This document shows positions 2,307-26,206 of a stretch of DNA of 64,000 nt, one piece after another. The notes beneath the pieces were generated by a model that was not told the origin of the DNA, did no database searches, and saw only the letters and a program-made list of their open reading frames with translations. The DNA comes from Myxococcota bacterium (GTDB lineage: Bacteria; Myxococcota_A; UBA9160; JAFDDA01). The translations under genes were made by a program, and so were the position numbers. Numbering within the stretch: position 1 is the stretch's first letter; every line of letters begins with the position of its first letter. The DNA lies in the NCBI GenBank assembly GCA_965228475.1, contig OZ245817.1:4704001-4768000 (forward strand). Direction: 5' to 3'.

Positions 2307-3821
2307 CTATAGCAAGCCGTCCCAGACGCGCCGGGAATTCGCGCCCGGGTCGTCCTCGAAGCGGAGCTCGCGGTCGAAGAGCAGCGTGGTCCGGGACTCG
2401 GGCGTCCAGGCCGGCCAGGCGCCGCCCGGGAGGCCGTCGTGCGCCGGGTTCCCGGTGCGGGCGAAGGCCAGCCAGGCGTCCATCGTGGCTTCGGAGAGTG
2501 CGTCGGCGTCGGGCCCCTCGGCGTTGAAGAAGTCCGCGCCCTGCATGCCCGTGCTGGTCACGCCGAAGACGAAGGGCAGCTCGATCGCGTGACACGCGCC
2601 GAGCATCCCGTTGCCGAAGCCGGCGACCCAGTCGTAGCGGTAGCAGTAGATGGAGCCGGGGTGCGCGTGGTGCGCCTCGGCCAGCCGCTGGGCCGGGATG
2701 CGGAAGACGCGGTCCGTCTCGAGCGCGAAGTAGAGGTCCGGCGGCGTCGCCTCGTGGCCGTGGTCGGCGCGGTAGGCGTCGAGAAGGGCGTCGGGCGTCC
2801 CGTGGTTCGCGATGCGGTCGCGCAGTCCGGCCTCGTCGAGCTGGGCCACGGCGGGGTCGAGGAACCCGAAGAGCTTCCACTCGTCGCGCGTCGTTCCGAC
2901 GAGCAGATCGACGCCGGCCGCCGAGCCTTCGCGGACCGCGTCGTGGGGCGTCGCGGGCAGGAAGTCCCCGTCGTGCACGGGCTGGAAGGGCAGCAGGCCG
3001 AGGGTGGTCCCGAGCGCGAGACTCGTCTGGGCCTGGGCGTCGCGGATCTTCTCCGCCGGAAGCTCGCGCAGGGCCCGCCCGGCATCGGCCGCGTCGACGC
3101 CGAGGGTCGCGAGGAGCGACTCCCCGACCTTCGTCGCCGTCGCCGCGTCGTGGACGTTGTGGGCGGCGCCGCTCTGGGGGATCGCCTTGTGGAAGAGCCC
3201 ACGCGCGGCGGGCGCGCCGAGGAGCGTGCCGACGCTCATGCCCCCCGCCGACTCCCCGAAGATCGTGACGTTGCCCGGGTCGCCACCGAAGGCCGCGATG
3301 TTGCGCTGCACCCACTCGAGGGCGGCCACTTGATCGCGGATGCCGCAGTTCGAGACCGCCTCCTCGAGACCGGGCGCGAGCTCCGGCAGGTGCAGGAAGC
3401 CGAGCGCCCCGAGGCGGTAGTTGATCGTCACCACGACGACGTCGCCGCGGCGCGCGAGCCGCGTGCCGTCGTAGATGGTCTGGGTGCCCGAGCCGAGCAC
3501 GAAGGCGCCCCCGTGGATCCACACCATGACCGGGCGCTTCGCGGCATCGGCGCCGGGCGTGAAGACGTTCAGGAAGAGGCAGTCTTCGTTCTGCTCACCG
3601 ACGTCCATGCCCGGGAGCGGAAGCATGATCGGCGGCTGGAGCGAGCAGGTCCCGGCCGCGCTGGCGTCGCGGACGCCGGCCCAGGGCTCGGGCGGCGCGG
3701 GGGCGGCGAAGCGGCGCGCGCCGACCGGCGGTGCCGCGTACGGGATGCCCCGGAAGATCTCGATGCCCTCCGCGTTCGTTCCCTCGAGCTTTCCGTACTG
3801 CGTCTCGACGATCGTTCCCAT
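2307..3821 (-). CDS. Type B carboxylesterase/lipase
   Basis: FRGIPYAAPP, EDCLFLNVF, WIHGGAF, catalytic GESAG, and ACHAIELPFVFG. Confidence 0.93.
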   Translation of the reverse strand: MGTIVETQYGKLEGTNAEGIEIFRGIPYAAPPVGARRFAAPAPPEPWAGVRDASAAGTCSLQPPIMLPLPGMDVGEQNEDCLFLNVFTPGADAAKRPVMVWIHGGAFVLGSGTQTIYDGTRLARRGDVVVVTINYRLGALGFLHLPELAPGLEEAVSNCGIRDQVAALEWVQRNIAAFGGDPGNVTIFGESAGGMSVGTLLGAPAARGLFHKAIPQSGAAHNVHDAATATKVGESLLATLGVDAADAGRALRELPAEKIRDAQAQTSLALGTTLGLLPFQPVHDGDFLPATPHDAVREGSAAGVDLLVGTTRDEWKLFGFLDPAVAQLDEAGLRDRIANHGTPDALLDAYRADHGHEATPPDLYFALETDRVFRIPAQRLAEAHHAHPGSIYCYRYDWVAGFGNGMLGACHAIELPFVFGVTSTGMQGADFFNAEGPDADALSEATMDAWLAFARTGNPAHDGLPGGAWPAWTPESRTTLLFDRELRFEDDPGANSRRVWDGLL

Positions 3822-3921
3822 GGCTCCTCCGGTACGTAGCGCGTGGTGCGGGCGACACGACAGGATGCACGAAAAGCGGCGGGGAAGGAACCTCCCCGGG
3901 CGGGCGCCCGGGAGCCTCCCG

Positions 3922-4623
3922 TCAGGACGTCGAGGCCCAGGACCCCGGGCGGCCCGGGCGCTCGAGGGCGTGGGCGAGGTCCGCCAGGAAACAGGCCCGC
4001 GGGATGGACTTCGCGCCCATCGAGAGCAGGTGATCGTTCTCCACCTGGCAGTCGAGGAACGCGTAGCCGAAGGCCTCGAGCCGCTCGCACAGCGCCACCA
4101 TGGCGACCTTGGATGCGTCGCGTTCGCGGTGGAACATCGACTCGCCGAAGAAGCCGCCGCCGATCGCCACGCCGTAGATGCCGCCGACGAGCCGGCCCCC
4201 GCGCCAGGCCTCGACGCTGTGGGCGTAGCCGAGCCGGTGCAGCGCGACGTAGGCCTCGATCATCGATTCGCTGATCCAGGTTCCGTCCTGTTCGCTGCGC
4301 GGAACGGTGCCGCAGGCGCGCATCGTGCCCTCGAAGTCCGAGTCGACGCGGATCTCGAAACGCTTCTGCCGCAGCGTCTTGGCGAGCTTTCGCGAGACGT
4401 GGACCTCGCTGGGTTCGAGCACGCAGCGCGGGTCCGGCGAGAACCACAGCATCGGCTCCACCTCGCTCGAGGGCCACGGGAAGATGCCCTGGCGGTACGC
4501 CGCCAGGAGCCACTCGGGCCCGAGGCCGCCGCCGACCGCCAGGAGTCCGCTTTCGTGGGCGCACTCGGGCGGCGGAAACACCGGCTCCTCACCGAGCCAA
4601 TAGGGGCCTTCGCGCCAGCGCAT
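3922..4623 (-). CDS. aat: Leucyl/phenylalanyl-tRNA--protein transferase
   Basis: GLLAVGG, AYRQGIFPW, WFSPDPR, AHSVEAW, FFGESMFH, DASKVA, LDCQV. Confidence 0.95.
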   Translation of the reverse strand: MRWREGPYWLGEEPVFPPPECAHESGLLAVGGGLGPEWLLAAYRQGIFPWPSSEVEPMLWFSPDPRCVLEPSEVHVSRKLAKTLRQKRFEIRVDSDFEGTMRACGTVPRSEQDGTWISESMIEAYVALHRLGYAHSVEAWRGGRLVGGIYGVAIGGGFFGESMFHRERDASKVAMVALCERLEAFGYAFLDCQVENDHLLSMGAKSIPRACFLADLAHALERPGRPGSWASTS

Positions 4624-4664
4624 GCCGGAAGGCTAGCCAGGAGTGGGCCGGAGGGCAGATCGCC

Positions 4665-5141
4665 CTAGGACTCGCGGAAGGAGCAGACCTTCCAGGCGCC
4701 GTCGCCGGTCTCGCAGACTTCGGCCCGCTGCCGCCGCTCGTGGCAGGCTTTGCGTTTCCGGCAGATCTGCTGGATCGCCTCGATGGTGACGGTGGACCCG
4801 TCCGTGGAGGACGTCTCCGAGAGCCGCTCGTAGCCGATCGAGACCACGTTGCCCTCGGCCGCGAGCACCTGGTCGTCCGGCGTCGCCTTGGAGCGGCCGA
4901 CACCGAGACGTGTATTTCGCCGTCCGCGCAGCTCCTGCACCTGGACCGTGCGCACCGCGCCCTTGGTGGCCAGCTTGCGCGCCTGCCCGTAGCGATCGTT
5001 CGCGAGATGCGAAGCGAACCGCTCGTAGGTCTCGAAGGCCTCGCTCCGGGGCGCGACCGCCTCGGGCAGCGAGACCGTTCCGGTCTGGAGGACCCACCAG
5101 CCGCCGCCGGCCAGGAGTGCCAAGAACAAGAGCTTTCCCAT
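4665..5141 (-). CDS. Hypothetical membrane-anchored protein
   Basis: N-terminal hydrophobic anchor (LLFLALLAGGGWWVL), GAGG RBS upstream, four C-terminal Cys; no family recognised. Confidence 0.65.
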   Translation of the reverse strand: MGKLLFLALLAGGGWWVLQTGTVSLPEAVAPRSEAFETYERFASHLANDRYGQARKLATKGAVRTVQVQELRGRRNTRLGVGRSKATPDDQVLAAEGNVVSIGYERLSETSSTDGSTVTIEAIQQICRKRKACHERRQRAEVCETGDGAWKVCSFRES

Positions 5142-5234
5142 GGCGCCACCTCGGACGCTTCATCGGCCGCCCGCGGGGCCCCATTGAGCCGCAGTTTCGG
5201 GAGCGGCTGTCGTACCATGGGCGCCGGAGGAACC

Positions 5235-6662
5235 ATGGGAGCCCGTACCGTTCTCTACGTCTGCCTGCTTTCTGGCTGGCTCGCCCTGCCGGCCGGCCCG
5301 GTCCGCGGGGACGACGCGGCGATCGCCCGCTTCACCGAGGCCCTGCGCTTCGAGACCATCTCCTTCGGCGACCCGGCGAACTGGCGCAGCGAGCCGTTCC
5401 TGGACCTCCACCGGCACCTGGAAGCGAGCTTCCCGCGCGTGCACCAGACCCTCCAGCGCGACGTCGTCGGGGACTACAGCCTGCTCTACACCTGGCGTGG
5501 GAACGATGCGGGCGCGGCACCGATCCTCCTGACCTCCCACCTCGACGTCGTCCCGGTTCCCGAGAGCACCCTCGAAGAGTGGGAGCAGCCGCCGTTCTCC
5601 GGCGCGATCGCGGACGGCTTCATCTGGGGCCGGGGCACCCTCGACAACAAGTACGGCGTCGTCGCCAGCCTCGAAGCCGTCGAGCGGCTGCTCTCCGATG
5701 GCTTCACGCCCTCCCGAACGGTCTACCTCGCCTTCGGCCACAACGAGGAGATCGGCGGCCAGGGCGGCGCGGCGGCCATCACGGACCTGCTCGCCTCCCG
5801 AGGCGTCCAGCTCGCCTGGAGCCTCGACGAAGGCCTCGCGGTGGTGTCGGGGGCCGTCCCGGGCCTCGAGGCTCCGACCGCCATGATCGGCATCGCCGAG
5901 AAGGGCTACGCCACCTTCGAGATCACGGCGCGGGCCGAGGGGGGACATTCGAGCACGCCTCCGCGTGAGGGCGCGATCGGCCGGCTCTCACGCGCCATCG
6001 CCCGCATCGAAGGCAACCCGATGCCCGGGCGCATGGACATCGCCGGGGGCCTCTTCGACGCGATCGGGCCTCACGTCGAGGGCGTCCAGGGGTTCGCGAT
6101 GCGCAACCACGGGCTGCTCGGCCCCGTCCTGCGCCGCGTCCTTTCGGGCAGCCCGGTGACGGACGCGATGCTCCGCACGACCACCGCGGTGACGATCGTC
6201 CGCGGCGGGACCAAGGAGAACATCCTCCCGCGCAGCGCCACGGCCACGGTGAACTTCCGCCTCTTCCCGGGCGACACGCCCGAAGACGTCGCCGCCCACC
6301 TCGCCGAGGTCATCGACGACGAAGGCGTCGAGATCGAACTCCTCGGCGGCAACGGCGCCTCCGCGGTCTCGAGCGACGAGAGCCGAGGCTTCACGGACAT
6401 CGCCGCCGCCATCGCCCGCGTCTTCCCGGATGCGATCGTGGCCCCGGGCCTCGTCCTCGCCGCCACGGACACCCGGCACTACAGCCGGATCGCCGACGAC
6501 GCCTACCGCTTCGGCCCCCTCGTGCTCACGACCGAGGACGCCAAGCGGATCCACGGGGTGAACGAACGCATCGGCGTCGAGAACTACCTGCAATGCATCG
6601 AGTTCTACGAGGCCCTGATCCGCCAGAGCGCCGGGCCGGGCAGCGAGCGCCCGGCCGAGTGA
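5235..6662 (+). CDS. M20 family peptidase (PM20D1/carboxypeptidase S-like), secreted
   Basis: Signal peptide; SHLDVVP, WGRGTLDNK, GHNEEIGG, GGHSSTPP, ATDTRHY, IHGVNERI; ATG preceded by GGAGG. Confidence 0.9.
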   Translation: MGARTVLYVCLLSGWLALPAGPVRGDDAAIARFTEALRFETISFGDPANWRSEPFLDLHRHLEASFPRVHQTLQRDVVGDYSLLYTWRGNDAGAAPILLTSHLDVVPVPESTLEEWEQPPFSGAIADGFIWGRGTLDNKYGVVASLEAVERLLSDGFTPSRTVYLAFGHNEEIGGQGGAAAITDLLASRGVQLAWSLDEGLAVVSGAVPGLEAPTAMIGIAEKGYATFEITARAEGGHSSTPPREGAIGRLSRAIARIEGNPMPGRMDIAGGLFDAIGPHVEGVQGFAMRNHGLLGPVLRRVLSGSPVTDAMLRTTTAVTIVRGGTKENILPRSATATVNFRLFPGDTPEDVAAHLAEVIDDEGVEIELLGGNGASAVSSDESRGFTDIAAAIARVFPDAIVAPGLVLAATDTRHYSRIADDAYRFGPLVLTTEDAKRIHGVNERIGVENYLQCIEFYEALIRQSAGPGSERPAE

Positions 6663-16135: not shown

Positions 16136-17206
16136 GTGAGCGCCATCCCGACCCCCGAGACGATCGACGCCGCCTGGCTGACCGCGCGGCTTCATGACGC
16201 GGGCCACGAGCGCGTCATGGTCCGCTCCTTCACCGCCGAGCGGATCGGCACGGGCCAGCTCGGCCTGTGCATCCGCTTCTCCCTCGAGCTCGAAGGCGAC
16301 GACCCGGACGCCCCCCGCAGCCTGGTCGCGAAGTTCCCCTCGGACGACCCGACGAGCCGCCAGTCCGGCGTGCAGCTGGGCGGCTACCTGAAGGAGGTGC
16401 GCTTCTATCAGGAGCTCGAACCGCGGCTCTCGATCGCGACGCCGCGCTGCTACTTCGCCGAGATCGAGGGCAAGGGGCCGGAATCGCTGGTGCTGCTCGA
16501 GGACCTGGCGCCGGCCCGGCAAGGCGACCAGCTCGCTGGCTGCTCCCCCGAGATCGCCCGCGCCGCGGTGCTCGAGCTGGTCGGGCTGCACGCCCCCACC
16601 TGGAATGACGCGAGCCTGCGCGGCATCGAGTGGCTCGGCGAGCCGAGCGAAGCGGCCACCCAGCTCGGCCGCGCCCTCTACCGCGCCCAGCTTCCGGGCT
16701 TCCTCGAGCGCTTCGGGCCCCACCTCGCCCCGGACGAGGCCGAGATCATCGCCCGGGTGGCCGACTCGACCGGCCCGCCCTTCGGCATGACCGACGGCCC
16801 CCTCGCCCTGGTCCACGTCGACTACCGGCTCGACAACCTGTTGATCGATGACGCACGCGAGCCCGCCCGGATTTCCGCCGTCGACTGGCAGAGCATCACG
16901 CTCGGGCGCCCGCTCTCGGACGTCGCCTACTTCCTCGGGGCCGGGCTCGAGCGCGAGGTGCGCAGGGGCTGCGAGGAGGAGATCGTCCGCGCCTACCACG
17001 CGGCGCTCGGCCGGGCGGGGGTCTCCGACTACTCCTTCGAGCAGTGCTGGCAGGACTACCGGTGGGGAAGCTTCTCGGGCTTCGCCGTCACGGTGATCGC
17101 CTCGATGATGGTCGTCCAGACCGAGCGGGGCGACGAGATGTTCGTGGCCATGGCCCGCCGCCACGCGGGCCACGCCCTCGACCTCGGCGGCGCCGAGCTG
17201 CTCTAG
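16136..17206 (+). CDS. Phosphotransferase (APH/ecdysteroid kinase-like)
   Basis: ERIGTGQ, KEVRFY, LLEDL, Brenner motif HVDYRLDNLL, VDWQ, DVAYFL. Confidence 0.88.
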   Translation: MSAIPTPETIDAAWLTARLHDAGHERVMVRSFTAERIGTGQLGLCIRFSLELEGDDPDAPRSLVAKFPSDDPTSRQSGVQLGGYLKEVRFYQELEPRLSIATPRCYFAEIEGKGPESLVLLEDLAPARQGDQLAGCSPEIARAAVLELVGLHAPTWNDASLRGIEWLGEPSEAATQLGRALYRAQLPGFLERFGPHLAPDEAEIIARVADSTGPPFGMTDGPLALVHVDYRLDNLLIDDAREPARISAVDWQSITLGRPLSDVAYFLGAGLEREVRRGCEEEIVRAYHAALGRAGVSDYSFEQCWQDYRWGSFSGFAVTVIASMMVVQTERGDEMFVAMARRHAGHALDLGGAELL

Positions 17207-17239
17207 CCCGGCACCGCTCCTCCGGAAAGCGAGCGCCGC

Positions 17240-17953
17240 CTACTTGTAGCCCTTGCCCTTCCCGTAGCTGCCGCCCTTCGGGCCGCCGCCCTTGCTCCCG
17301 GTCGGGATCTTGGCCTTGGGCAACCCCTCCACCTGCGGGCCGACGACGGTGCCCATCGGCGTCTGGGGGACGTTGGGCCCGGCGCGGTCGCCCGAGTTCT
17401 CCCCGCCGCCGCCCCCGCCGCTCGGCGGCGTTCCGACCTGGCCGGCGCCTCCGCTTCCGGCGAGGTTCGCCGGCGTCAGGGTGCTGGTCCCGACGCGGAT
17501 GTCCCGCCGGCCCCAGTTCGAATCCTTGATCAGGATCGTCCCGCCGCCCGCCTTGATCTTGAGCTTGTCCTTCACCTTGGTGTTCTTGACGGTGACGTCG
17601 TTGTTTCCCAGCTCGTCGTCGATGGTCAGGTCCTCGACGTCGAGGCCGTCGACGGTGACGTCGTCGTCTCCGCCCCGGGTCTTGATCTTGACCTTGCCCG
17701 TCACGCGCTGGCCGGTCGTCACGGAGGCCTGCCCGTTCACCGTGGTGCCGTTCTGACCGGTGACCGTGATCGTGCCGTCGGCGTTCTGGGTCACGATGAT
17801 GTCGTTGTTGCCCGAATCCCCGTTGATGTTGAGGTCGCCCCCGGGCGTGACGGCTCCCACCTGGACGTCCCCGCCGGCCGCTTCGGCGGCTCCGGGAATC
17901 GCCAGCGCGAAGGCGACGAGAACGAGAGAGGCGAGAGACGATCGACGGATCAT
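17240..17953 (-). CDS. Secreted hypothetical protein with beta-solenoid-like repeats and Gly/Pro/Lys-rich tail
   Basis: Signal peptide after AAGGAGG RBS; repeats GDSGNNDIIV / RGGDDDVTV / ELGNNDVTV. Confidence 0.75.
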   Translation of the reverse strand: MIRRSSLASLVLVAFALAIPGAAEAAGGDVQVGAVTPGGDLNINGDSGNNDIIVTQNADGTITVTGQNGTTVNGQASVTTGQRVTGKVKIKTRGGDDDVTVDGLDVEDLTIDDELGNNDVTVKNTKVKDKLKIKAGGGTILIKDSNWGRRDIRVGTSTLTPANLAGSGGAGQVGTPPSGGGGGGENSGDRAGPNVPQTPMGTVVGPQVEGLPKAKIPTGSKGGGPKGGSYGKGKGYK

Positions 17954-18018
17954 GGCGGCCCTCCTTGGACGGTTCATGATCGCCTTTTCCGCGCTGCGAA
18001 TGCAACGAATCGCTGGGC

Positions 18019-18061
18019 GCGCGGAACGAGAGTTCCCAAGGAGGGAAACTCCGTTCCGCGC
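18019..18061. repeat. Inverted repeat (candidate enhancer/UAS or RNA hairpin)
   Basis: GCGCGGAACG-AGAGTTCCC-AAGGA-GGGAAACTC-CGTTCCGCGC. Confidence 0.6.
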
Positions 18062-18143
18062 AGGACGAGTCTTTCCCGTTCCCGGTGAAGCCCCGGCGGA
18101 TTGCTTCTCAAGAAAATCGGGCGGTTCAGTTTCCCGGATCGGA

Positions 18144-18159
18144 TGGCGCGCCGCTTGCA
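18144..18159 (+). promoter_or_regulatory. Sigma54 (-24/-12) promoter
   Basis: TGGCGCGCCGCTTGCA, exact GG-N10-GC spacing, matches TGGCAC-N5-TTGCW with one mismatch. Confidence 0.65.
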
Positions 18160-18308
18160 CAGGCGAGGTGACACCGGACGGTGATTCCCTCGGAACGCCG
18201 CTCCGCACCGTTCGAATCCCCCGTTCAGATCTTTCCCTCTGAACTCGACGGCATTGAAACCAGGTACGCAGGGCCGGACGCAGCCGGCACCTGCAAGAGG
18301 GACCGACC

Positions 18309-19109
18309 GTGCTGCACCCGAGCGATGCCTTCGTCTACCCGTTCTTCTACACCGCGGCCCGCCGGGATTGGCAGAGCGAGCCGCCGCGCACCAACATGCG
18401 CGACGCCCTGGCGGTGATCGAGATCCAGTCCGCCCTGCTCGAGCTCGGCCTCGCGCGGCCGGGGGAGACGATCCTGAACATGCCGCCGAAGAAAGCCCCC
18501 CGCTCCCTCCTCCCGTGGGAGCAGTGCTACGAGATCGATCTCTCCTTCGTCCGGCCCGGCGGGATGCTGCTCGCCTGCACGCGTCCGCCGATCAGCGACT
18601 GGAACGAGTGGGAGGAAGACCGCAAGAAGGTCGAGGCCGGGAACACGCGGCTCGAGCGGCGCATCTTCTTCGAGTTCATCAAGTACCTCCCGACCTGCTG
18701 CCGCTCGCACCTGCTCGTCTCCGAGGCCATCGCGGCGGTGCTCGACGAGCCCTTCCGCAACCGCCGCGAGAGCGTGATCGCCCAGAAGAACCCGAGCCGT
18801 TACCTGCACTTGAACGGTGACGACGGCTGGAGCCCGGCGGGCAAAGACGCGCGCTCGCCCGTCTTCGGCATCAACACGCGCGCCCTCTACGAGGACGGCC
18901 CGGGCCTCTACTGCTTCTTCGGGATGGACTCGATCTCGACCCTCGCCTGGGCCTGGAAGGTCCGTCACGAGATGCCGCACCTGCTCGAGAAGCCCGGCTT
19001 CTCGTTCTTCGAGCTGATCCCGGGTGCGCTTCCCGAGCGCCCGACGGACCACCGCTGGGCCGCGGACTGGGGCATCGAATGCGTGGTGGAGGGCCAGCTT
19101 CCCTACTGA
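18309..19109 (+). CDS. Hypothetical protein (orphan, 266 aa)
   Basis: GTG after GAGG RBS, GC3-rich coding pattern, natural amino-acid composition; no family recognised. Confidence 0.75.
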   Translation: MLHPSDAFVYPFFYTAARRDWQSEPPRTNMRDALAVIEIQSALLELGLARPGETILNMPPKKAPRSLLPWEQCYEIDLSFVRPGGMLLACTRPPISDWNEWEEDRKKVEAGNTRLERRIFFEFIKYLPTCCRSHLLVSEAIAAVLDEPFRNRRESVIAQKNPSRYLHLNGDDGWSPAGKDARSPVFGINTRALYEDGPGLYCFFGMDSISTLAWAWKVRHEMPHLLEKPGFSFFELIPGALPERPTDHRWAADWGIECVVEGQLPY

Positions 19110-19204
19110 GCCCGAGAAACTTTCGGCCCGAAACGAAATCGCCGGAGTCGATGGCAGGTTCCGTTCGTACCACCACGCACGCCGCTGCGGAAAGGAGAAC
19201 GAAC

Positions 19205-19984
19205 ATGAGCCGAGACACGCGAGACCGGAAGCGGGCGCGGATGCGCAAGAAGGTCAACGCCGAGCCCGATCCGACGGAGGAAGAACGCAACTGGGCCTTC
19301 GTCGAGCGCTGCGTCGGGACGCCGGGAGTGCGCACGCTCTACCTCTGGGGCCCGCCCGGGACGGGCAAGAGCCACGCCGCCTTCCACGCGGGCGGCACCG
19401 GGCGCGGCGTCTACGCCATCGCCCTGACGGAGGAGACGCCGGCCGCGGAGCTGCGCGGTTTCTTCCGGCCCGACGAGCGGGGCATGGTCTGGCAGGACGG
19501 CCCCATGGTGATGGCCATGCGCGAAGGGGCGCGGCTCGTGATCAACGAGCTCGGCCACGCCGGCCCGGACGTACTCGCCCTGCTCTATCCGGTGCTCGAG
19601 AGCGTCGACACCGCCCGCATCACGCTCCCGACGGGCGAAACCGTCGCACCCGCCGAGGGTTTCTCCTGCATCGCCACGAGCAACGACCCGCCGAACACGC
19701 TGCCCCTGGCCCTGCGCGACCGCTTCGACGCCACGATCGAAGTGAACATGCCCCACCCCGCGGCCTTCGAGCGGCTCCCCGAGCACCTGCGCGGCCCCGC
19801 GAAGCAGACCTGGGGCCTCGGCGAGGATCGGCAGATCTCCGTACGCGGCTGGCTCGCCATCGCGCGGCTCGAGCCGGAGTTCGGGCTGCGCGACGCCTGC
19901 CGCGCGGTCTTCGGCAACGAGCGGGGAGCCCGGGTCTTCGAGGGGCTCGAGCTTCGCCAGCTGAGCTTCGAAGGGGGGGCGTGA
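19205..19984 (+). CDS. MoxR/CbbQ/CobS-like AAA+ ATPase
   Basis: Walker A GPPGTGKS, WQDGP, Walker B variant LVINEL, sensor I IATSN, Arg finger ALRDRF, sensor II ISVR; AAGGAG RBS. Confidence 0.9.
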   Translation: MSRDTRDRKRARMRKKVNAEPDPTEEERNWAFVERCVGTPGVRTLYLWGPPGTGKSHAAFHAGGTGRGVYAIALTEETPAAELRGFFRPDERGMVWQDGPMVMAMREGARLVINELGHAGPDVLALLYPVLESVDTARITLPTGETVAPAEGFSCIATSNDPPNTLPLALRDRFDATIEVNMPHPAAFERLPEHLRGPAKQTWGLGEDRQISVRGWLAIARLEPEFGLRDACRAVFGNERGARVFEGLELRQLSFEGGA

Positions 19985-19985
19985 G

Positions 19986-21422
19986 ATGGGTGGGTTCAAG
20001 GCGCCGGGGGACGTCCTCCCCCCGCTTCGCCCGGAGCGCTCCGAGGTCGAAGCGTCCCGCTACGCCCCCTACCCGGAGATCGCCTGCCCGGGGCCCCGGT
20101 GGAGGGTGATCGACTCGACGGGCCGCACGGATCTCCCGAGCATCGGGGTCACGGACATGGAGAACCGCGTCATCTACACCCCGCTGCGGGCCGACGGCGT
20201 CGAGGTCTCCACCCACGAGCTCGGCCACGTGCTGTTCTCGCCGCCGAAGCTCCCGAAGGTCCGCTTCCCGCAGATCCTCCTGATGGCGGTGGAGGACGCG
20301 CGGGTGAACCTCGCCCTGGCCGCCGCGGGGCGCGCACTGCACTTCGACGCCGAGCGCTCGGCGGAGATCCGGCTGCGCGGCACCCACGATCTCAAGCGCG
20401 GCGAGTTCCACGTCTTCCTGCTCCGGCTCGTGGCCTCCCTCGGGACGGGCGAGGCGCCGGTCCTCTTCGAGGAGCTTGCCTCGGCCCCGGCGGAGGCGGA
20501 GCACTGGGTCGAGGGCTGGGTGACGGCGGTCGAGACCCGGCTCGAGCGCGCACGGGTTCGTTCCGGCAAGCCGGTGGCGCCATTCCCTGTGGCGCTGCGC
20601 ATCGCGCGGGATCTCGCCCGGAACTTCGACGCGTGCGCCCTGCTCGACGAAGCGCTCCGCGTCCCCGGGCAGTCCTGCTGCGTCGCGGACACCACCGGGG
20701 TCGAAGAGCGCGGCGCGCGGCGGCGCCCGCGCTTCCTGGCCGACCTGCCGGAGGAGGGCGGCGCCCCGGGGCCCTACGACAAGCCGGGCGTCCGGCCCGG
20801 AAAGCTGCGGGTGACCGAGGCGCCGATGCCCCTCGGTCGAACCGCGCGCCCGCTCCCGATGGGGCGCCGGTACCGCCCGGCGACGGAGGGCTGCCACGTG
20901 GCGCGGCCCCACCGCTGGGCGCTCGACCGCGCCATCTTCCGCCGGGCCGTGCGCGCCCGCGGCGGCACCGTGCTGATCGACGTCTCGGGCAGCATGCGCC
21001 TCTCGGCCGAGATGGTGCAGTCGCTCGTCGAGGCCTCGGGCGGCGCGGCGCTCGTCGCCATCTATTCGGGCCGCGCGCGGGAGGGCGAGCTCCGCATCGT
21101 CGCGCGCGGCGGACGGCGCGCGGCGGAGGAGGGGCTCGAGCCCTTCGGCAACGGCAACATCGTCGACCTCCCGGCCCTCGAGTGGCTCGGCCGCCAGCAC
21201 GAGCCGCGGATCTGGGTCTCCGACGGCGGCGTCACCGGGATGATGGACAAGAGCTCTCCCGAGATCCGCAAGCGCTGCGGGACGGTGGTGCGGCAGCACC
21301 GCATCCAGCAGGTCGCGGACTCCGGGGAGGCGGTGAAGCGCCTCGCGGCGAGCGGCCGGGGAACCGCGAGCTCCGGAAAGGCGAAGAAGCGGCGCGCACC
21401 GAGCCCCGAGCTCGAGTTCTAG
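19986..21422 (+). CDS. Metallopeptidase-like (HExxH) + vWA domain protein, AAA partner
   Basis: HELGH (20214-20228) followed by VEDARVN; MIDAS LIDVSGSM (DVSGS at 20979-20993) and WVSDG. Confidence 0.82.
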   Translation: MGGFKAPGDVLPPLRPERSEVEASRYAPYPEIACPGPRWRVIDSTGRTDLPSIGVTDMENRVIYTPLRADGVEVSTHELGHVLFSPPKLPKVRFPQILLMAVEDARVNLALAAAGRALHFDAERSAEIRLRGTHDLKRGEFHVFLLRLVASLGTGEAPVLFEELASAPAEAEHWVEGWVTAVETRLERARVRSGKPVAPFPVALRIARDLARNFDACALLDEALRVPGQSCCVADTTGVEERGARRRPRFLADLPEEGGAPGPYDKPGVRPGKLRVTEAPMPLGRTARPLPMGRRYRPATEGCHVARPHRWALDRAIFRRAVRARGGTVLIDVSGSMRLSAEMVQSLVEASGGAALVAIYSGRAREGELRIVARGGRRAAEEGLEPFGNGNIVDLPALEWLGRQHEPRIWVSDGGVTGMMDKSSPEIRKRCGTVVRQHRIQQVADSGEAVKRLAASGRGTASSGKAKKRRAPSPELEF

Positions 21423-23158
21423 AAGTCCTGGGGGATGGGGTGGGGAACCCCGTCGAGGACGGTTCCCCAGATCGGGACGTCGGCGAGACCCTCGGGCTCG
21501 ACCGCGTAGGGGTCCGCTTCGAGCACGGTGAAGTCGGCACGCTTGCCGGGCGCGAGCGTGCCGATCTCCTCCTCGAGCCCGAGGCTCCAGGCGGACTCCA
21601 CCGTGATGGCGCGCAGGGCCGCCTCGCGCGAGAGCCGCTCGCCCGGGCCCCACACCTTCCCGTCGCTCGCGACGCGCGTCATGGCGATGCTCGCGAGCCG
21701 CAGGGGCTCGGCGGGAGCCATCGGGTAGTCCGAGTGGAAGGAGGTGGCGACGCCCGCGCGCCCGAGCCCACCGAGGGGAGAGATCCGCGCCGCCCGCTCG
21801 GGACCGAGGCCGTGCTCGGCGTAGATCGGCGAGAGCTCGTGGGTATAGTAGGCGTTGTTCGAGACGGCCGCGCCGAGCTTCGCCACCCGCGCGTGCTGGT
21901 CCTCGCGGGCGAAGCCGTAGTGCTCGAGCACGACGCGCCGCTCGCCCGGCGTGCGGGCCTGCTCGGCTTCGAGCTGATCGAGCACGAGGTCGAGGCCGGC
22001 GTCCCCGTTCACGTGGACGTGGAGGTCCCAGCCCTTTCGCCAGAACGCCGCGAGCACCGCGGCCTGGGCTTCGGGCTCCATCATCCACTCGCCGTGGTGC
22101 CCGTCGAGGTAGCCGTCCCGCATCTGCATGAGCTGGCTGAAGATCGCGCCGTCCCCGTAGTACTTGGCATGACGCACGATGCGCACGCGGTCCGTCGAGA
22201 AGCGCAGGAGGCTCGCCGCCTCCCGTTCCGCGGCTTCCGCCGAGCCCGTCTCGCGCAGGAAGAACGTCGCATTCGGCACGAGGGCCAGGCGGAAGGGTGC
22301 GTCATGGAGCCGGAGCGCCAGGTGCAGCATCGCGAGCTCCCCGAACTTCGAGGCCTGGGGGAAGCCCATGTCGCCGACGGTGGTCAGGCCGCCGCGATGG
22401 ACCACGCGGATGAGCTGCTCGAGGCCGCGCAGATAGCGCCGCGGCTCGGTCAGGATCTTCACCATGGGCCGGCCGAGATCGAAGACCGCCGTCTCCCAGA
22501 GATGGCCGGCCTCCCAATCCGCGTGGGGGTGCGCGTCGAAGGCCGCGCGCTCGAGGCCGAGCCGGGCGAGCCCCGCGCCGTTGAAGAACATCTCGTGCAC
22601 CGAGCGTTGCCACACCAGCAGGGGGCGCTCGGGGGAGACCGCGTCGAGATCCGCGCGGGAGAGCTCGCCGTGGTAGGGGCGGTGGTAGCCCCAGACGAGG
22701 AGCCACTCGTCTCCCGCCCGGCCTTCCCGGGCGGCGACGAGCTCGCGCAGGCGGTCGAGAAAGGCCTCCCGCCCGCGGACCGCGCGGGTGCGTCCGGCCG
22801 GGGTGGTCCACTCCATGGCCGAGACGATCTCCATGCCGAGGATCGTGGCGCCGAGGGAAGGGTGGAGGTGCGGGTCGATGAACCCGGGCAGGATCACCTT
22901 GCCCGCGAAGCGGTCGTCGCGCTCGAAGGGGTCTTCGCCGAGCGCCGCTTCGACCTCGGCGAGGCTTCCGAGGGCCCGGATCCGTCCGCCTTCGACGGCG
23001 ATGGCCTCCGCCTTCGGCTGCCCGGGCTCCATCGTGTGGATGATGCTGGCTGTATAGAGCGTCGCCGGCGGATCCCCGCCACAGCCGAGGGCCAGCAAGG
23101 CGAGCACCGGCGCCAGGGATGCCCGCCATCCGCGCCGGAAACCGGCCGCGTGCGTCAT
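21419..23158 (-). CDS. Amidohydrolase family 3 (YtcJ-like) lipoprotein
   Basis: Lipobox LALGC; PGFIDPHLH, KYYGDG, HVHVNGD, LEH, HSDYP, GTLAPGKRADF. Confidence 0.9.
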   Translation of the reverse strand: MTHAAGFRRGWRASLAPVLALLALGCGGDPPATLYTASIIHTMEPGQPKAEAIAVEGGRIRALGSLAEVEAALGEDPFERDDRFAGKVILPGFIDPHLHPSLGATILGMEIVSAMEWTTPAGRTRAVRGREAFLDRLRELVAAREGRAGDEWLLVWGYHRPYHGELSRADLDAVSPERPLLVWQRSVHEMFFNGAGLARLGLERAAFDAHPHADWEAGHLWETAVFDLGRPMVKILTEPRRYLRGLEQLIRVVHRGGLTTVGDMGFPQASKFGELAMLHLALRLHDAPFRLALVPNATFFLRETGSAEAAEREAASLLRFSTDRVRIVRHAKYYGDGAIFSQLMQMRDGYLDGHHGEWMMEPEAQAAVLAAFWRKGWDLHVHVNGDAGLDLVLDQLEAEQARTPGERRVVLEHYGFAREDQHARVAKLGAAVSNNAYYTHELSPIYAEHGLGPERAARISPLGGLGRAGVATSFHSDYPMAPAEPLRLASIAMTRVASDGKVWGPGERLSREAALRAITVESAWSLGLEEEIGTLAPGKRADFTVLEADPYAVEPEGLADVPIWGTVLDGVPHPIPQDF

Positions 23159-24019: not shown

Positions 24020-24643
24020 ATGCGATCACGAACCCACGGCGCTCCGCTCGCACTCGGTGTGGTGCTTGCCCTCCTCACGATGGGAACGAGCGCCCTCCTC
24101 GCGATGGGAACGAGCGGAACGGCCGAGGCCGAAGCGCCCCTCGACGGCTTCGAACGTTTCGTCGGCCCGGGCGGGAGCTTCCACTTCGAAGGCGAGACCG
24201 CGCGGGACGGTCTCGCGCACCTCGGAAGCTGGTTCGTCCCGGCGGGCGAAGCCGCCGGCTTCCACCACGTCTACACCCAGCCCGAGGCCATCGCCGCCTA
24301 CCGCGAGACGGGCGTCTTCCCCGACGGTGCCGTGCTCTTGAAGGAGCTGCGCGGCTTCTCACGAGCGAACTACACGACGGGCAGCGACGTGGCATCCCCG
24401 TCGGCGCCGACCCAGTGGTTCCTCATGGTGAAGGATGCCGAGGGGCGGAATGCCGAGAACCCGCTCTGGCGGGAAGGCTGGGGCTGGGCGCTCTTCAAGG
24501 CGGACGCGCCGGGCAAGAACGTCGCGAAGGGCTTCGCGACCGACTGCCAGGGCTGCCACCTCCCCGCGCGCGCGACGGATTGGGTCTACGTGCAGGGCTA
24601 CCCGCGCCTCACGGCCGACTCCGCAGCTGAGCCTGGCCGCTAG
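24020..24643 (+). CDS. Cytochrome P460 family protein
   Basis: Signal peptide; FHHVY, FPDGAVLLKEL, MVKD, GWGWA, CQGCH heme motif near C-terminus, YPRL. Confidence 0.85.
   Translation: MRSRTHGAPLALGVVLALLTMGTSALLAMGTSGTAEAEAPLDGFERFVGPGGSFHFEGETARDGLAHLGSWFVPAGEAAGFHHVYTQPEAIAAYRETGVFPDGAVLLKELRGFSRANYTTGSDVASPSAPTQWFLMVKDAEGRNAENPLWREGWGWALFKADAPGKNVAKGFATDCQGCHLPARATDWVYVQGYPRLTADSAAEPGR
24068..24115 (+). repeat. 24-bp tandem duplication in the P460 signal peptide
   Basis: GCCCTCCTCACGATGGGAACGAGC followed by GCCCTCCTCGCGATGGGAACGAGC (1 mismatch). Confidence 0.85.
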
Positions 24644-25575
24644 TGGGCGCCGACGTCCTCAGCGAGGTGCTCACGGCTCTCGAGCTCTCGGCCGTTCCGT
24701 GGTTCCGCGCGGAGCTCCACCACCCGTTCGGCGTCGCCGTCCCGCCCGGCGCCGAGGGTGGGGACGGCGCCATCCGGTTCCACGTCGCGATGGAGAACGA
24801 CTGCACGATCGCCGTCGGCGAAGACGAACCGCTGCGCTTTCATGCGGGAGATCTCGTCCTCGTTCCGGGTGGGGCGAGCCATGTCCTCTCCGACTCACCC
24901 GGACGCGCCTCTACACCTTTGGCCGAGGCCCTCGCGGGCGCGCGCTTCGACGGGATCGGTCCGATCACGCTCGGCGAAGGCCGCGATCGGACCGTCGTCG
25001 TCTGCGGTGAGTTCCGCTTCGCGAACGAGGCGCTCCATCCCTTCGTCGCTTCCCTGCCGTCGTTGCTCCACCTCCCCGCCGAGGAGGGAACGGGCTACGG
25101 CTGGGTGGAGAGCCTGCTGGAACACCTCGAGCGCGAGGCCCGCCACCAGCGGACGGGCCACGTCGAAGTCATCCGCCGGATCGCCGAGATCCTGCTCATC
25201 GAAGTCTTTCGCGCCCGCGCCGACGACCCGGAGCTCGGCGCGCTCTCCGCGCTCGCGGACCCGCAGCTCCGCCGCGCCCTCGAGGCCATCCACGCCCAGC
25301 CCGAGGCGGACTGGCGCCTCGAACAGCTCGCGCGGATCGCCGGGCAGTCGCGCACGGTCTTCGCCGAGCGGTTCCGGGCGCGCGTCGGCGTCGCGCCGAT
25401 GAAGTACCTCACCGGCTGGCGGATGCAGAAGGCGCGCCGCCTGCTCGCCGAGTGTGACGAGCCGGTAGGCTGGGTGGCCCAGCGCGTCGGGTACGGCTCG
25501 GAGTCCGCCTTCAACCGGGCCTTCCGGGAACACTTCGGCGTTCCACCCGGAACCTGGCGCCGGAGCGCCGCCTAG
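24643..25575 (+). CDS. AraC family regulator with Cupin_6 domain (RclR-like)
   Basis: N-terminal DVLSEVL...FHV, GDLVL, VVCG; C-terminal double HTH WRLEQLARIAGQSRTVFAERF...GYGSESAFNRAF. Confidence 0.9.
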   Translation: MGADVLSEVLTALELSAVPWFRAELHHPFGVAVPPGAEGGDGAIRFHVAMENDCTIAVGEDEPLRFHAGDLVLVPGGASHVLSDSPGRASTPLAEALAGARFDGIGPITLGEGRDRTVVVCGEFRFANEALHPFVASLPSLLHLPAEEGTGYGWVESLLEHLEREARHQRTGHVEVIRRIAEILLIEVFRARADDPELGALSALADPQLRRALEAIHAQPEADWRLEQLARIAGQSRTVFAERFRARVGVAPMKYLTGWRMQKARRLLAECDEPVGWVAQRVGYGSESAFNRAFREHFGVPPGTWRRSAA

Positions 25576-25708
25576 CCGCTCGCCCCGGCTCCGCGCTTCC
25601 GGACGATCGGGCAAGTCCCGCGAACGCCGGCGCGGCTCCCGCGCCTTGGCACCGCATCGAACTCTCCACAACGAACCGGCCCCACCCGGGCCGGAAGGAG
25701 AGAAGAAG

Positions 25709-26206
25709 ATGAATCACGATCGAACCGTTTCCCGGAACGCTTTCGCCGCACTCGGCGCGCTGCTCTTCGCCTTCGCGATGCCGGCCGCCGCCGAGGACGA
25801 GCAGAACCTCTCGCTCGGACTGACCGCCGAGGGAAAGCCCCTCGCCATGCACGGCTACGACCCCGTGGCCTACTTCACGCTCGGCGCGCCGACCCTCGGC
25901 AGCGCCGCGCACGCCGTCGTCCACGAGGGTGCGACCTACTACTTTGTGAGTGAGGACCACGCCAAGCGCTTCCGGAAGTCGCCGGCGAAGTACGCGCCCC
26001 AGTTCGGCGGCTACTGCGCCTTCGGCGTCTCCGTCGGCAAGAAGTTCGACGCGGACCCGCGCTTCTGGGCGGTTTCCGACGGGCGGCTCTTCCTGAACCT
26101 GAATGCGGACATCGCGAAGATGTTCCAGAAGGACGTGCCCGGCGCCGTCGCCAAGGCCGACGGCCAGTGGCGGAAGATCGAGCGCAAGGCGGTCGGCGCG
26201 CTCTAG
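25709..26206 (+). CDS. YHS-domain periplasmic protein
   Basis: Signal peptide; GYDPVAYF, YYFVS, KYAPQFGGYCAFGV, DGRLFLN. Confidence 0.85.
   Translation: MNHDRTVSRNAFAALGALLFAFAMPAAAEDEQNLSLGLTAEGKPLAMHGYDPVAYFTLGAPTLGSAAHAVVHEGATYYFVSEDHAKRFRKSPAKYAPQFGGYCAFGVSVGKKFDADPRFWAVSDGRLFLNLNADIAKMFQKDVPGAVAKADGQWRKIERKAVGAL

Follow-up and report, generated by a model that had tools for sequence, protein, structure and literature searches.

What do genes resembling cobS and cobT do in a bacterium in which no CobN is found? This question is raised by a three-gene locus of a Myxococcota bacterium (GTDB lineage Bacteria; Myxococcota_A; UBA9160; JAFDDA01; assembly GCA_965228475.1). The locus lies in a stretch of 64,000 nucleotides (nt) of contig OZ245817.1 (forward strand, positions 4,704,001 to 4,768,000; G000:C1:4704001-4768000 in our numbering), which we refer to as the window and whose coordinates are used throughout. 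The genome, G000, consists of a single contig of 5.0 Mb with a GC content of about 70% and is 96% complete. The three genes are ORF1, an open reading frame encoding a protein of an unnamed family, an ATPase gene of the CobS/MoxR class, and ORF3, which encodes a putative metallopeptidase with a von Willebrand factor A (vWA) domain and is here called the adaptor. The ATPase and ORF3 are a cellular branch of the gene pair that is known from tailed phages as 'cobST' or as MoxR plus metallopeptidase-vWA. ORF1 is linked to this pair in cells and is specific to cells, and the three genes very probably work together as one unit.

The three genes and their linkage

All three genes are on the + strand. 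The program-made list of open reading frames places them at 18309-19109 (266 amino acids), 19079-19984 (301 amino acids) and 19986-21422 (478 amino acids). ORF1 (18309..19109) starts with GTG and encodes a predicted cytoplasmic alpha/beta protein. For the ATPase, ATG 19205 is most likely the start codon, resulting in a gene at 19205..19984 and a protein of 259 amino acids. This start is favored because a Shine-Dalgarno sequence, AGGAG, can be read from the sequence at 19193..19197, 7 nt upstream and within GGAAAGGAG, which immediately precedes the ATG, and because homologues align from about residues 1-30 of the 259-amino-acid form. The stop codon of the ATPase gene and the ATG of ORF3 (19986..21422) are contained in TGAGATG and separated by a 1-nt spacer. 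Thus, the gene arrangement described in a first-pass annotation of this DNA, i.e., three co-oriented genes with the last two 1 nt apart and an ATPase of 259 amino acids, was correct, and the motifs that it named (Walker A, HELGH, VEDARVN, a charged linker, DVSGS and SDG) are all present in the translations.

The linkage of ORF1 to the pair was determined from two anchors. Locus scans that started from single proteins found nothing and the loci were recovered by alignment-based scans. The scan anchored on ORF3 yielded 34 loci from GTDB genomes (L005-L038), after L002-L004 had been set aside as repeats of three of them on the basis of identical match statistics. Twenty-three of the 34 cellular loci were assessable, meaning that the ATPase was present with at least 900 bp upstream of it. 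ORF1 was located directly upstream and in the same orientation in 17 of these 23 loci, and was divergent in one (L036). The reciprocal scan, anchored on ORF1, provided 16 metagenome loci, 15 of which were assessable; the ATPase gene follows ORF1 in 13 of the 15, and the vWA gene comes next in all seven loci that are long enough. Out of 201 genomes sampled from the phylum, three (G000, G028 and G170) contain ORF1 and exactly these three contain ORF3, with the two genes adjacent in each. The first-pass annotation had made its proposal dependent on such a linkage of the orphan gene, and the linkage holds from both anchors. The distribution of the trio is patchy (3/201 genomes of the phylum and 4/41 relatives), and a fourth conserved gene around it was not found.

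ORF1 itself was not matched by Pfam (E<=1), PHROG, PADLOC or NCBIfam models. Its AlphaFold model is of high quality, with a predicted local distance difference test (pLDDT) score of 92.6 and a predicted template modeling (pTM) score of 0.90, and the fold has no significant structural neighbor in PDB or BFVD. BcsB was considered as a related fold and rejected: it is the top PDB match in Foldseek with an E value of only 0.16, and the top match in VIA-align (6yg8_A) with a Z score of 7.1 and a root-mean-square deviation (rmsd) of 4.2 over 161 residues. The N-terminal domains of GH84 and GH115 proteins were likewise rejected, their Z scores of 5-6 being in the range of common arrangements in VIA-align. 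The top match in BFVD reached an E value of 0.15, and the ESM Atlas returned only unnamed bacterial clusters. A profile search against 1.84 billion representatives revealed a family of 753 clusters at E<=1e-3, of which 326 are found at E<=1e-30. Among the 150 best-listed of the 753 clusters, the relatives are nearly all stand-alone proteins of 240-300 amino acids, and the only name that they carry in their sources is 'hypothetical protein'. D32, R92, E116, R132, G197, P198 and W254 are invariant in ORF1. With 28-41% identity to its homologues, compared to 47-59% for the ATPase, ORF1 is the fastest-evolving member of the trio.

Three unusual ORF1 relatives were observed. In L028:7497-8525, one frame fuses residues 9-152 of an ORF1 homologue to residues 296-461 of the vWA protein without an ATPase, which resembles what a deletion within the trio would leave behind. 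The metagenomic protein P0229 (503 amino acids) carries seven disintegrin-like repeats (PF00200, E 2.3e-39) together with the C-terminal half of an ORF1 homologue; it is the sole multi-domain form among the relatives listed and may be a gene-calling artefact. Finally, the ORF1 homologue at G170:C18:36274-37014 contains one in-frame TAA within the match and may reflect a pseudogene or an assembly error.

The adaptor ORF3

[quoted passage not shown] HELGH is found at residues 77-81, VEDARVN at residues 102-108, DVSGS at residues 332-336 and SDG at residues 412-414 of the translation. In an alignment of 30 homologues that share 37-60% identity, H77, E78, H81, E103, D104, R106 and N108 are invariant, and so are D332, S334, S336, S412 and D413 of the MIDAS region. 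Because these residues are invariant in all 30 homologues at this degree of divergence, the motifs are, judging from the alignment, not due to chance. The homologues have a length of 361-493 amino acids and a single architecture.

The AlphaFold model of ORF3, calculated with the 30 homologues as input, has a pLDDT of 82. The N domain (residues 22-216; 20049..20633) is predicted to consist of a three-stranded sheet (strands 40-43, 55-57 and 62-65) and seven subsequent helices that span residues 69-216. HELGH (20214-20228), i.e., H77-E78-x-x-H81, is located in the first long helix (residues 69-84), and VEDARVN (20289-20309) in the helix after it (residues 96-113), which contains E103. The presence of HExxH and a glutamate on consecutive helices of the model is the gluzincin arrangement; model and alignment together thus provide what defines a zincin in sequence terms, a helical HExxH with a putative Glu ligand on the following helix. 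Fold searches with the whole model produced matches to the vWA domain, and the zincin assignment of the N domain is derived from motifs and helices. The N domain is followed by the predicted disordered linker (residues 232-265; 20679..20780), in which the pLDDT is below 50 and 12 of the 34 residues are charged.

The vWA domain (residues 320-458; 20943..21359) includes the two MIDAS motifs DVSGS (20979-20993) and SDG (21219-21227). Its top match in Foldseek is the VWA domain of NorD (9qh6_G, E 3.6e-4), and VIA-align also returned a NorD VWA domain as the top match (9qh8_G, Z 9.4, rmsd 2.6 over 121 residues), with other vWA domains matching at Z scores of 6-8. The fold match, combined with the invariant DxSxS and the downstream Asp, identifies this part as a vWA domain with a MIDAS.

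Pfam, NCBIfam and PADLOC models do not match ORF3, none of the 30 family members matches anything in Pfam at E<=10, and a comparison of the ORF3 profile with PDB sequences resulted in chance-level matches only (E >0.3). The PHROG family phrog_33218, which is of unknown function, matches residues 314-453 with an E value of 2.3e-21. Recent preprints (bioRxiv 10.64898/2026.07.21.739949, 10.64898/2026.10.09.757910) describe the N domain of CobT, composed of a sheet of three strands and of helices, as similar to peptidase M48C, and report that CobT_N docks on the small domain of CobS while a VWA-adjacent finger enters the pore. The predicted layout of ORF3, with its three-strand-plus-helices N domain, flexible linker and C-terminal vWA domain, fits this description of the CobT-type architecture. 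ORF3 is therefore built like CobT, yet we do not assign it to the CobT family, because its sequence link to the Pfam CobT model is weak.

The ATPase

The ATPase is a compact member of the CobS/MoxR class of AAA+ proteins and is approximately 70 residues shorter than a usual CobS. It contains a Walker A motif, GPPGTGKS, at residues 49-56 and belongs to the AAA_5 family (PF07728, E 3.9e-18), since its score of 66.2 bits is above the curated cut-off of 22. The CobS-like family phrog_249, which bears the label 'porphyrin biosynthesis', matches the ATPase with an E value of 2.2e-23, and the identity to cyanophage CobS is 27-28%. Matches to the CobS_N domain and, in the Pfam search, to CbbQ_C were not found in the protein. 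The Walker B motif reads LVINE (residues 111-115; 19535-19549), with an Asn in place of the usual Mg-binding Asp. Among 25 cellular and 72 viral homologues, at least 90% share this N-E variant, in contrast to the DE of cyanophage CobS. The variant is a family-wide oddity for an AAA+ motor.

Relation to phage cobST and origin

A search of GenBank phages by tblastn, with either ORF3 or its viral homologue L041 as query, yielded nothing at E<=1e-5. When IMG/VR was scanned on the basis of an alignment, 133 relatives were confirmed, and 80 loci were kept. The viral ORF3 homologues share 25-47% identity with ORF3 and many of them are full-length. In 73 of the 80 loci, an ATPase gene with 33-54% identity is located directly upstream of the ORF3 homologue. 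The HExxH and E motifs, 21-23 residues apart, are present in 26/26 full-length cellular and 62/78 viral homologues, and all 26 cellular adaptors retain the MIDAS in addition. Some viral lineages show a decayed HExxH, which reads HQLGR or LQLGH. Five viral adaptors (L040, L041, L061, L083 and L084) contain a Cys-x2-Cys...His insert directly before HExxH, as in CEDCGAFHDKMIRRHEMGH, which the cellular proteins lack.

The same pair is encoded by Synechococcus phage S-CAM3 (NC_031906.1; L133:1500-1830), where cobS is immediately preceded by a coding sequence that bears the annotation 'peptidase' and is annotated to start at MDFINVVEDARIE. Read from further upstream, the frame encodes HEVGH, 21 residues and then VVEDARIE, so that both ORF3 motifs recur here with their spacing unchanged. 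As the frame stays open upstream and includes HEVGH, the annotated start is probably too late and cuts off the zincin motif. When the annotated S-CAM3 'peptidase' was compared with the ORF3-family alignment (A1), only the MIDAS stretch was aligned, at a probability of 5.5%. The S-CAM3 pair is positioned between gp46-like and sliding-clamp genes, and 8 of 12 downstream neighbors tested in viral loci encode an exonuclease (phrog_284). These neighbors and the S-CAM3 gene order place the viral pair in a replication module and not in a structural one. The resemblance to pairs of tailed phages, which the first-pass annotation had pointed out, is thus borne out by the 80 IMG/VR loci, by phrog_249 and by S-CAM3.

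According to the published accounts, the pair is spread over T4-like cyanophages, jumbo phages and archaeal tailed viruses (PMC8651126, PMC7824862), and cobS is listed as one of 25 cyanophage core genes (PMC3037559). Two functions have been proposed. Iyer et al. (PMC7824862) describe the jumbo-phage pair as a MoxR AAA+-vWA chaperone with an N-terminal metallopeptidase and suggest a role in virion assembly and processing. Liu et al. (PMC8651126) propose that viral cobST encodes cobaltochelatase subunits that hijack the host CobN for cobalamin supply.

The origin of the cellular pair was analyzed in a FastTree phylogeny of 98 ATPase segments, rooted on cyanophage CobS, from which high-scoring segment pairs shorter than 180 residues and L001-L004 were excluded. 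All 25 cellular ATPases form one clade together with L039 (support 1.0). Its sister group comprises 57 viral sequences (0.985), and additional viral branches lie deeper in the tree (supports 0.59-0.94). A transfer from phage to cell is likely on the basis of this sequence tree. The viral member of the cellular clade, L039, is an IMG/VR contig in which a cellular-type pair without ORF1 (2393-5848) is followed after 700 bp by an integrase gene and has a RecE-like exonuclease in its vicinity; L039 is plausible as a mobile carrier or transfer vehicle of the pair.

ORF1 does not share this viral distribution. An ORF1 hidden Markov model matched 0/80 viral loci, and a pattern scan of IMG/VR detected no relative. 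The viral pair has its own conserved upstream ORF of about 170 amino acids in 44 of 67 loci; it was considered as a counterpart of ORF1 and rejected as unrelated (hhalign probability 0.1%).

These data bear on the idea that the locus is a prophage leftover, in which the pair once served a phage in virion assembly, processing or replication-linked remodeling and has no function in the host. The abundance of the pair in viral contigs and the virion role suggested by Iyer et al. speak for such an origin, but the catalytic and MIDAS motifs are intact in all 26 cellular copies, which come from several phyla and constitute one old clade. Furthermore, ORF1 is cell-specific, the viral pair adjoins an exonuclease gene and not structural genes, no phage genes are present within about 6 kb on either side of the trio, and the GC content of the locus resembles the rest of the genome. 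We consider a mere leftover highly improbable.

Possible function

The label of the ATPase family and the proposal of Liu et al. suggest that the pair represents CobS and CobT of an aerobic cobaltochelatase, which insert cobalt together with CobN. The architecture of both proteins agrees with this. However, CobN/ChlH (PF02514) was found in none of five trio genomes (G000, G001, G022, G028 and G170), whereas the same control search detected it in 5 of 14 reference genomes. The Pfam CobT model (PF06213) matches neither ORF3 nor any of the 30 family members (E<=10) nor any other protein of G000, a CobS_N match is likewise lacking in the ATPase, and the only true CobT examined (L119) is without HExxH. 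Because CobN was not found in any of the five genomes, the trio is not considered to be a cobaltochelatase; this reading is close to refuted for this genome and retains a nearly negligible probability.

The best explanation is that the trio forms a phage-derived, ATP-driven remodeling or processing machine with ORF1 as third subunit or client, although we rate its probability as somewhat below even. The mechanism is deduced by taking three solved machines, CobS-CobT, NorQ-NorD and CbbQ-CbbO, as analogues. The ATPase would assemble as a hexamer, the N domain of the adaptor would dock on the small AAA+ subdomain, and a vWA-adjacent finger of the adaptor would insert into the central pore. The MIDAS would hold an acidic residue of the target protein, which would then be remodeled by ATP hydrolysis. 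ORF1 would act as dedicated client or third subunit, in the place that CobN occupies in cobaltochelatase and VMAP in ternary systems, and the zincin site could cleave ORF1 or a protein presented by ORF1. The cassette would have been acquired from phages once, with ORF1 joining later.

Several observations weigh against this explanation. Given the Asp to Asn replacement in Walker B throughout the family, the ATPase activity is presumed. HExxH is lost in 15 of 78 viral adaptors (e.g., HQLGR), although all 78 keep the MIDAS, and thus the pair does not in general require proteolysis. The similarity of the adaptor to named families is low: Pfam CobT ranks 26th in the atlas search with ORF3 (score 0.93) and reaches an E value of 0.24 on a cyanophage homologue, over its VEDARIE motif, and the N part of ORF3 aligns with DUF2201_N over 37 columns only (E 0.0098, probability 4%). 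The linkage of the trio is incomplete, as 5/23 cellular loci contain the pair without ORF1 (L007, L022, L024, L029 and L031) and 2/15 ORF1-anchored loci lack the pair (L146 and L148). Pairs without ORF1 are scattered within the cellular ATPase clade, and ORF1 was therefore lost or moved several times. Finally, the root of the tree is viral, so the direction of transfer is tentative.

A more specific version of this machine would be a self-contained, ATP-gated proteolytic switch of phage origin, in which the motor and the vWA-MIDAS part feed ORF1 to the zincin site of the adaptor, so that ORF1 is either activated or destroyed. We regard this proposal as doubtful. If it is true, the core 'cobS/cobT' genes of cyanophages and of numerous further tailed phages would by extension encode protein remodeling and processing machines and not cobalt-chelatase subunits.

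The genes around the trio are relevant for two further readings. Between 12.6 and 26.2 kb of the window, the flanks encode a P450, CMD and luciferase-like proteins, an APH/EcKL kinase, an amidohydrolase, an acyltransferase, a cytochrome P460, an AraC protein and a YHS protein. Neither nor, cbb, cox, cob or bat genes nor phage genes were detected in this region, as the first-pass annotation had stated. Metabolic genes also flank the trio elsewhere, with short-chain dehydrogenases/reductases, acyl-CoA ligases and amidohydrolases recurring. Such a setting would suit a MoxR-vWA maturation chaperone in the style of NorQ/NorD, CbbQ/CbbO or RavA/ViaA, whose client is encoded elsewhere and for which ORF1 serves as specificity adaptor or co-chaperone. 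The clients of known MoxR-vWA systems are often unlinked, the vWA domain of ORF3 is structurally closest to NorD, and the fixed architecture of ORF1 (about 240-300 amino acids among the 150 best-listed of 753 clusters) is as expected for a housekeeping-type accessory protein. However, in 26 loci no recurrent candidate client was present in the vicinity of the trio, the sparse and patchy occurrence of the cassette is unlike that of a core enzyme's chaperone, and NorD and CbbO are not characterized by an intact zincin site. This possibility is therefore not preferred and appears unlikely.

The first-pass annotation proposed a domesticated or defense-related module. A reading of this kind would be an anti-phage or conflict system like VMAP-MoxR-vWA, with ORF1 as sensor or effector and the zincin domain as executioner, all domesticated from a phage. 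The gene order of the trio matches the order that is strictly kept in VMAP systems, in which VMAP-C is described as an alpha+beta domain of unknown fold (PMC7159879). The patchy distribution, the variable flanks, the rapid evolution of ORF1, the apparent phage origin of the pair and the occurrence of a cell-type pair beside an integrase in L039 are also compatible with this. On the other side, PADLOC-DB 2.0 provided no significant match for the three proteins, but only short P-loop matches (best IetA, over 19 residues at E 0.0058). In the flanks of 26 loci, only 5 of the 94 ORFs match PADLOC models, each through a generic domain (sigma-54 activators and Ser/Thr kinases twice each, and PDC-S07 once). 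VMAP-C (PF20028) matches neither ORF1 nor any other protein of G000, which contains one copy of the trio. The variability of effector domains, the first hallmark of conflict systems according to Kaur et al. (PMC7159879), is not seen. With a negative PADLOC check, generic flanks and no effector shuffling, the proposed defense role is not supported, and we judge it rather improbable.

Regulation and genomic neighborhood

The first-pass annotation had also placed the trio under sigma-54 control. A -24/-12 match of the sigma-54 type, TGGCGCGCCGCTTGCA (TGGCGC-N5-TTGCA), is indeed located at 18144..18159 on the + strand, 150 nt upstream of ORF1. It is the sole match in the window, compared to 0.11 expected; among 100 shuffles, 11 contained one match or more. 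The corresponding upstream regions of 14 homologous loci lack even a relaxed motif. The genome contains rpoN and about 22 genes for sigma-54 activators, none of them in the window. Thus, the consensus motif is real and sigma-54 control of this copy is possible, but the motif is not conserved, an activator gene is missing from the window, and sigma-54 control is not a property of the system. Genes for sigma-54 enhancer-binding proteins were observed directly downstream of the trio in one other locus (L018:9359-10432) and 2 kb away in a second one (L009:11299-12807). From the earlier reading as a whole, the conserved three-gene unit and the likeness to phage pairs have been retained, while the defense role and the regulatory assignment have not.

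Scans for sigma-70 promoters and terminators (17900-21700) and for Rfam families (17000-22500) returned nothing. The sequencing runs listed as containing this DNA are three, from two studies, and no RNA run is listed among them. Upstream of the trio, a divergent gene on the - strand (17243-17974) encodes a secreted Gly/Thr/Asp-rich protein with the signal peptide MIRRSSLASLVLVAFALAIPGAAEA and no Pfam match; the listed ORF extends to 18208, and the signal peptide suggests a later start. Downstream of the trio (24020-26206), the genes for the cytochrome P460, a cupin-AraC regulator and a secreted YHS-domain protein are consecutive. They possibly constitute a small metal- or nitrogen-oxide-related unit that is unrelated to the trio.

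Significance

The first-pass annotation had put the system forward as a candidate for an undescribed one. The ATPase plus peptidase-vWA pair has already been described (PMC7824862, PMC8651126), whereas its combination with ORF1 appears to be novel, as a variation on the ternary systems of the MoxR-vWA type. A published description of the ORF1 family or of the trio was not found, a weak negative because the family is nameless and supplements were outside the search. For phages, the role of cobS and of 'cobT/peptidase' appears, in the accounts at hand, to be argued from annotation only, as cobalamin supply via the host CobN (PMC8651126) or as virion assembly and processing (PMC7824862). The locus analyzed here represents a cellular branch in genomes in which CobN was not found; it keeps the catalytic and MIDAS residues and is tied to a small partner protein, ORF1. 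It therefore offers a simple and tractable three-protein system for studying what 'cobS/cobT' genes do without CobN. It is also a compact addition to the MoxR-vWA ternary systems, in which the adaptor itself bears a likely protease.

Comparison with known systems

The closest relative of the pair is phage cobST: both proteins are present there with an identical order of domains, and the genes are adjacent and co-oriented in both settings. Common features are an HExxH followed after about 21-23 residues by E[ED]xR[IV], the linker, the DxSxS-type vWA domain and the N-E Walker B motif, and the ATPase of the window is 33-54% identical to its IMG/VR homologues. In contrast to the viral pairs, the cellular copies constitute their own clade, have the zincin site in 26/26 instead of 62/78 cases, are preceded by ORF1 and are embedded among metabolic genes, whereas the viral pair is found beside replication and recombination genes.

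Cobaltochelatase (CobNST) shares with the trio an AAA_5 motor and an adaptor that consists of an M48C-like N domain, a long flexible linker and a vWA domain, as described for CobT in the preprints cited above. It also shares the three-component logic, in which a third protein is gripped by the adaptor. The trio differs by the lack of detectable CobN in its genomes, by the absence of matches to Pfam CobT and CobS_N, and by the intact zincin motif of ORF3; a comparison of its N domain with the true CobT L119 gave an hhalign probability of 0.1%.

NorQ-NorD is related through the adaptor, as the VWA domain of NorD, in complex with NorQ, is the top structural match of the ORF3 vWA domain and the MIDAS is intact. 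NorQ-NorD and CbbQ-CbbO differ from the trio in that the ATPase shows no CbbQ_C match, nor and cbb genes are not nearby, and the ORF3 adaptor is much shorter and contains a zincin-like N domain.

DUF2201 proteins (PF13203 plus a VWA-like domain), which are paired with MoxR, have in common with ORF3 an HExxH-containing N domain that is followed by a vWA domain. An hhalign comparison of ORF3 with ten DUF2201-type proteins of this phylum aligned the vWA part with a probability of 94% (E 1.1e-7) and placed the HExxH of ORF3 after a 'TD..R...P' strand motif, as in DUF2201_N. The DUF2201_N model of Pfam matched 0/30 ORF3 family members and none was found in G000.

VMAP-MoxR-vWA systems, as described by Kaur et al. 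(PMC7159879), are known in myxobacteria. They differ from the trio in their composition: ORF1 consists of one small domain and has no enzymatic or effector parts at its N terminus, the vWA protein lacks C-terminal effectors, and the ORF3 homologues and the listed ORF1 relatives each show one architecture without variable effector domains. Nonetheless, the third component is in both systems an alpha+beta protein that has conserved polar residues and an unassigned fold, and the gene order of third component, MoxR and vWA is the same, an order that is kept in 17 of the 23 cellular loci and in 13 of the 15 loci anchored on ORF1.

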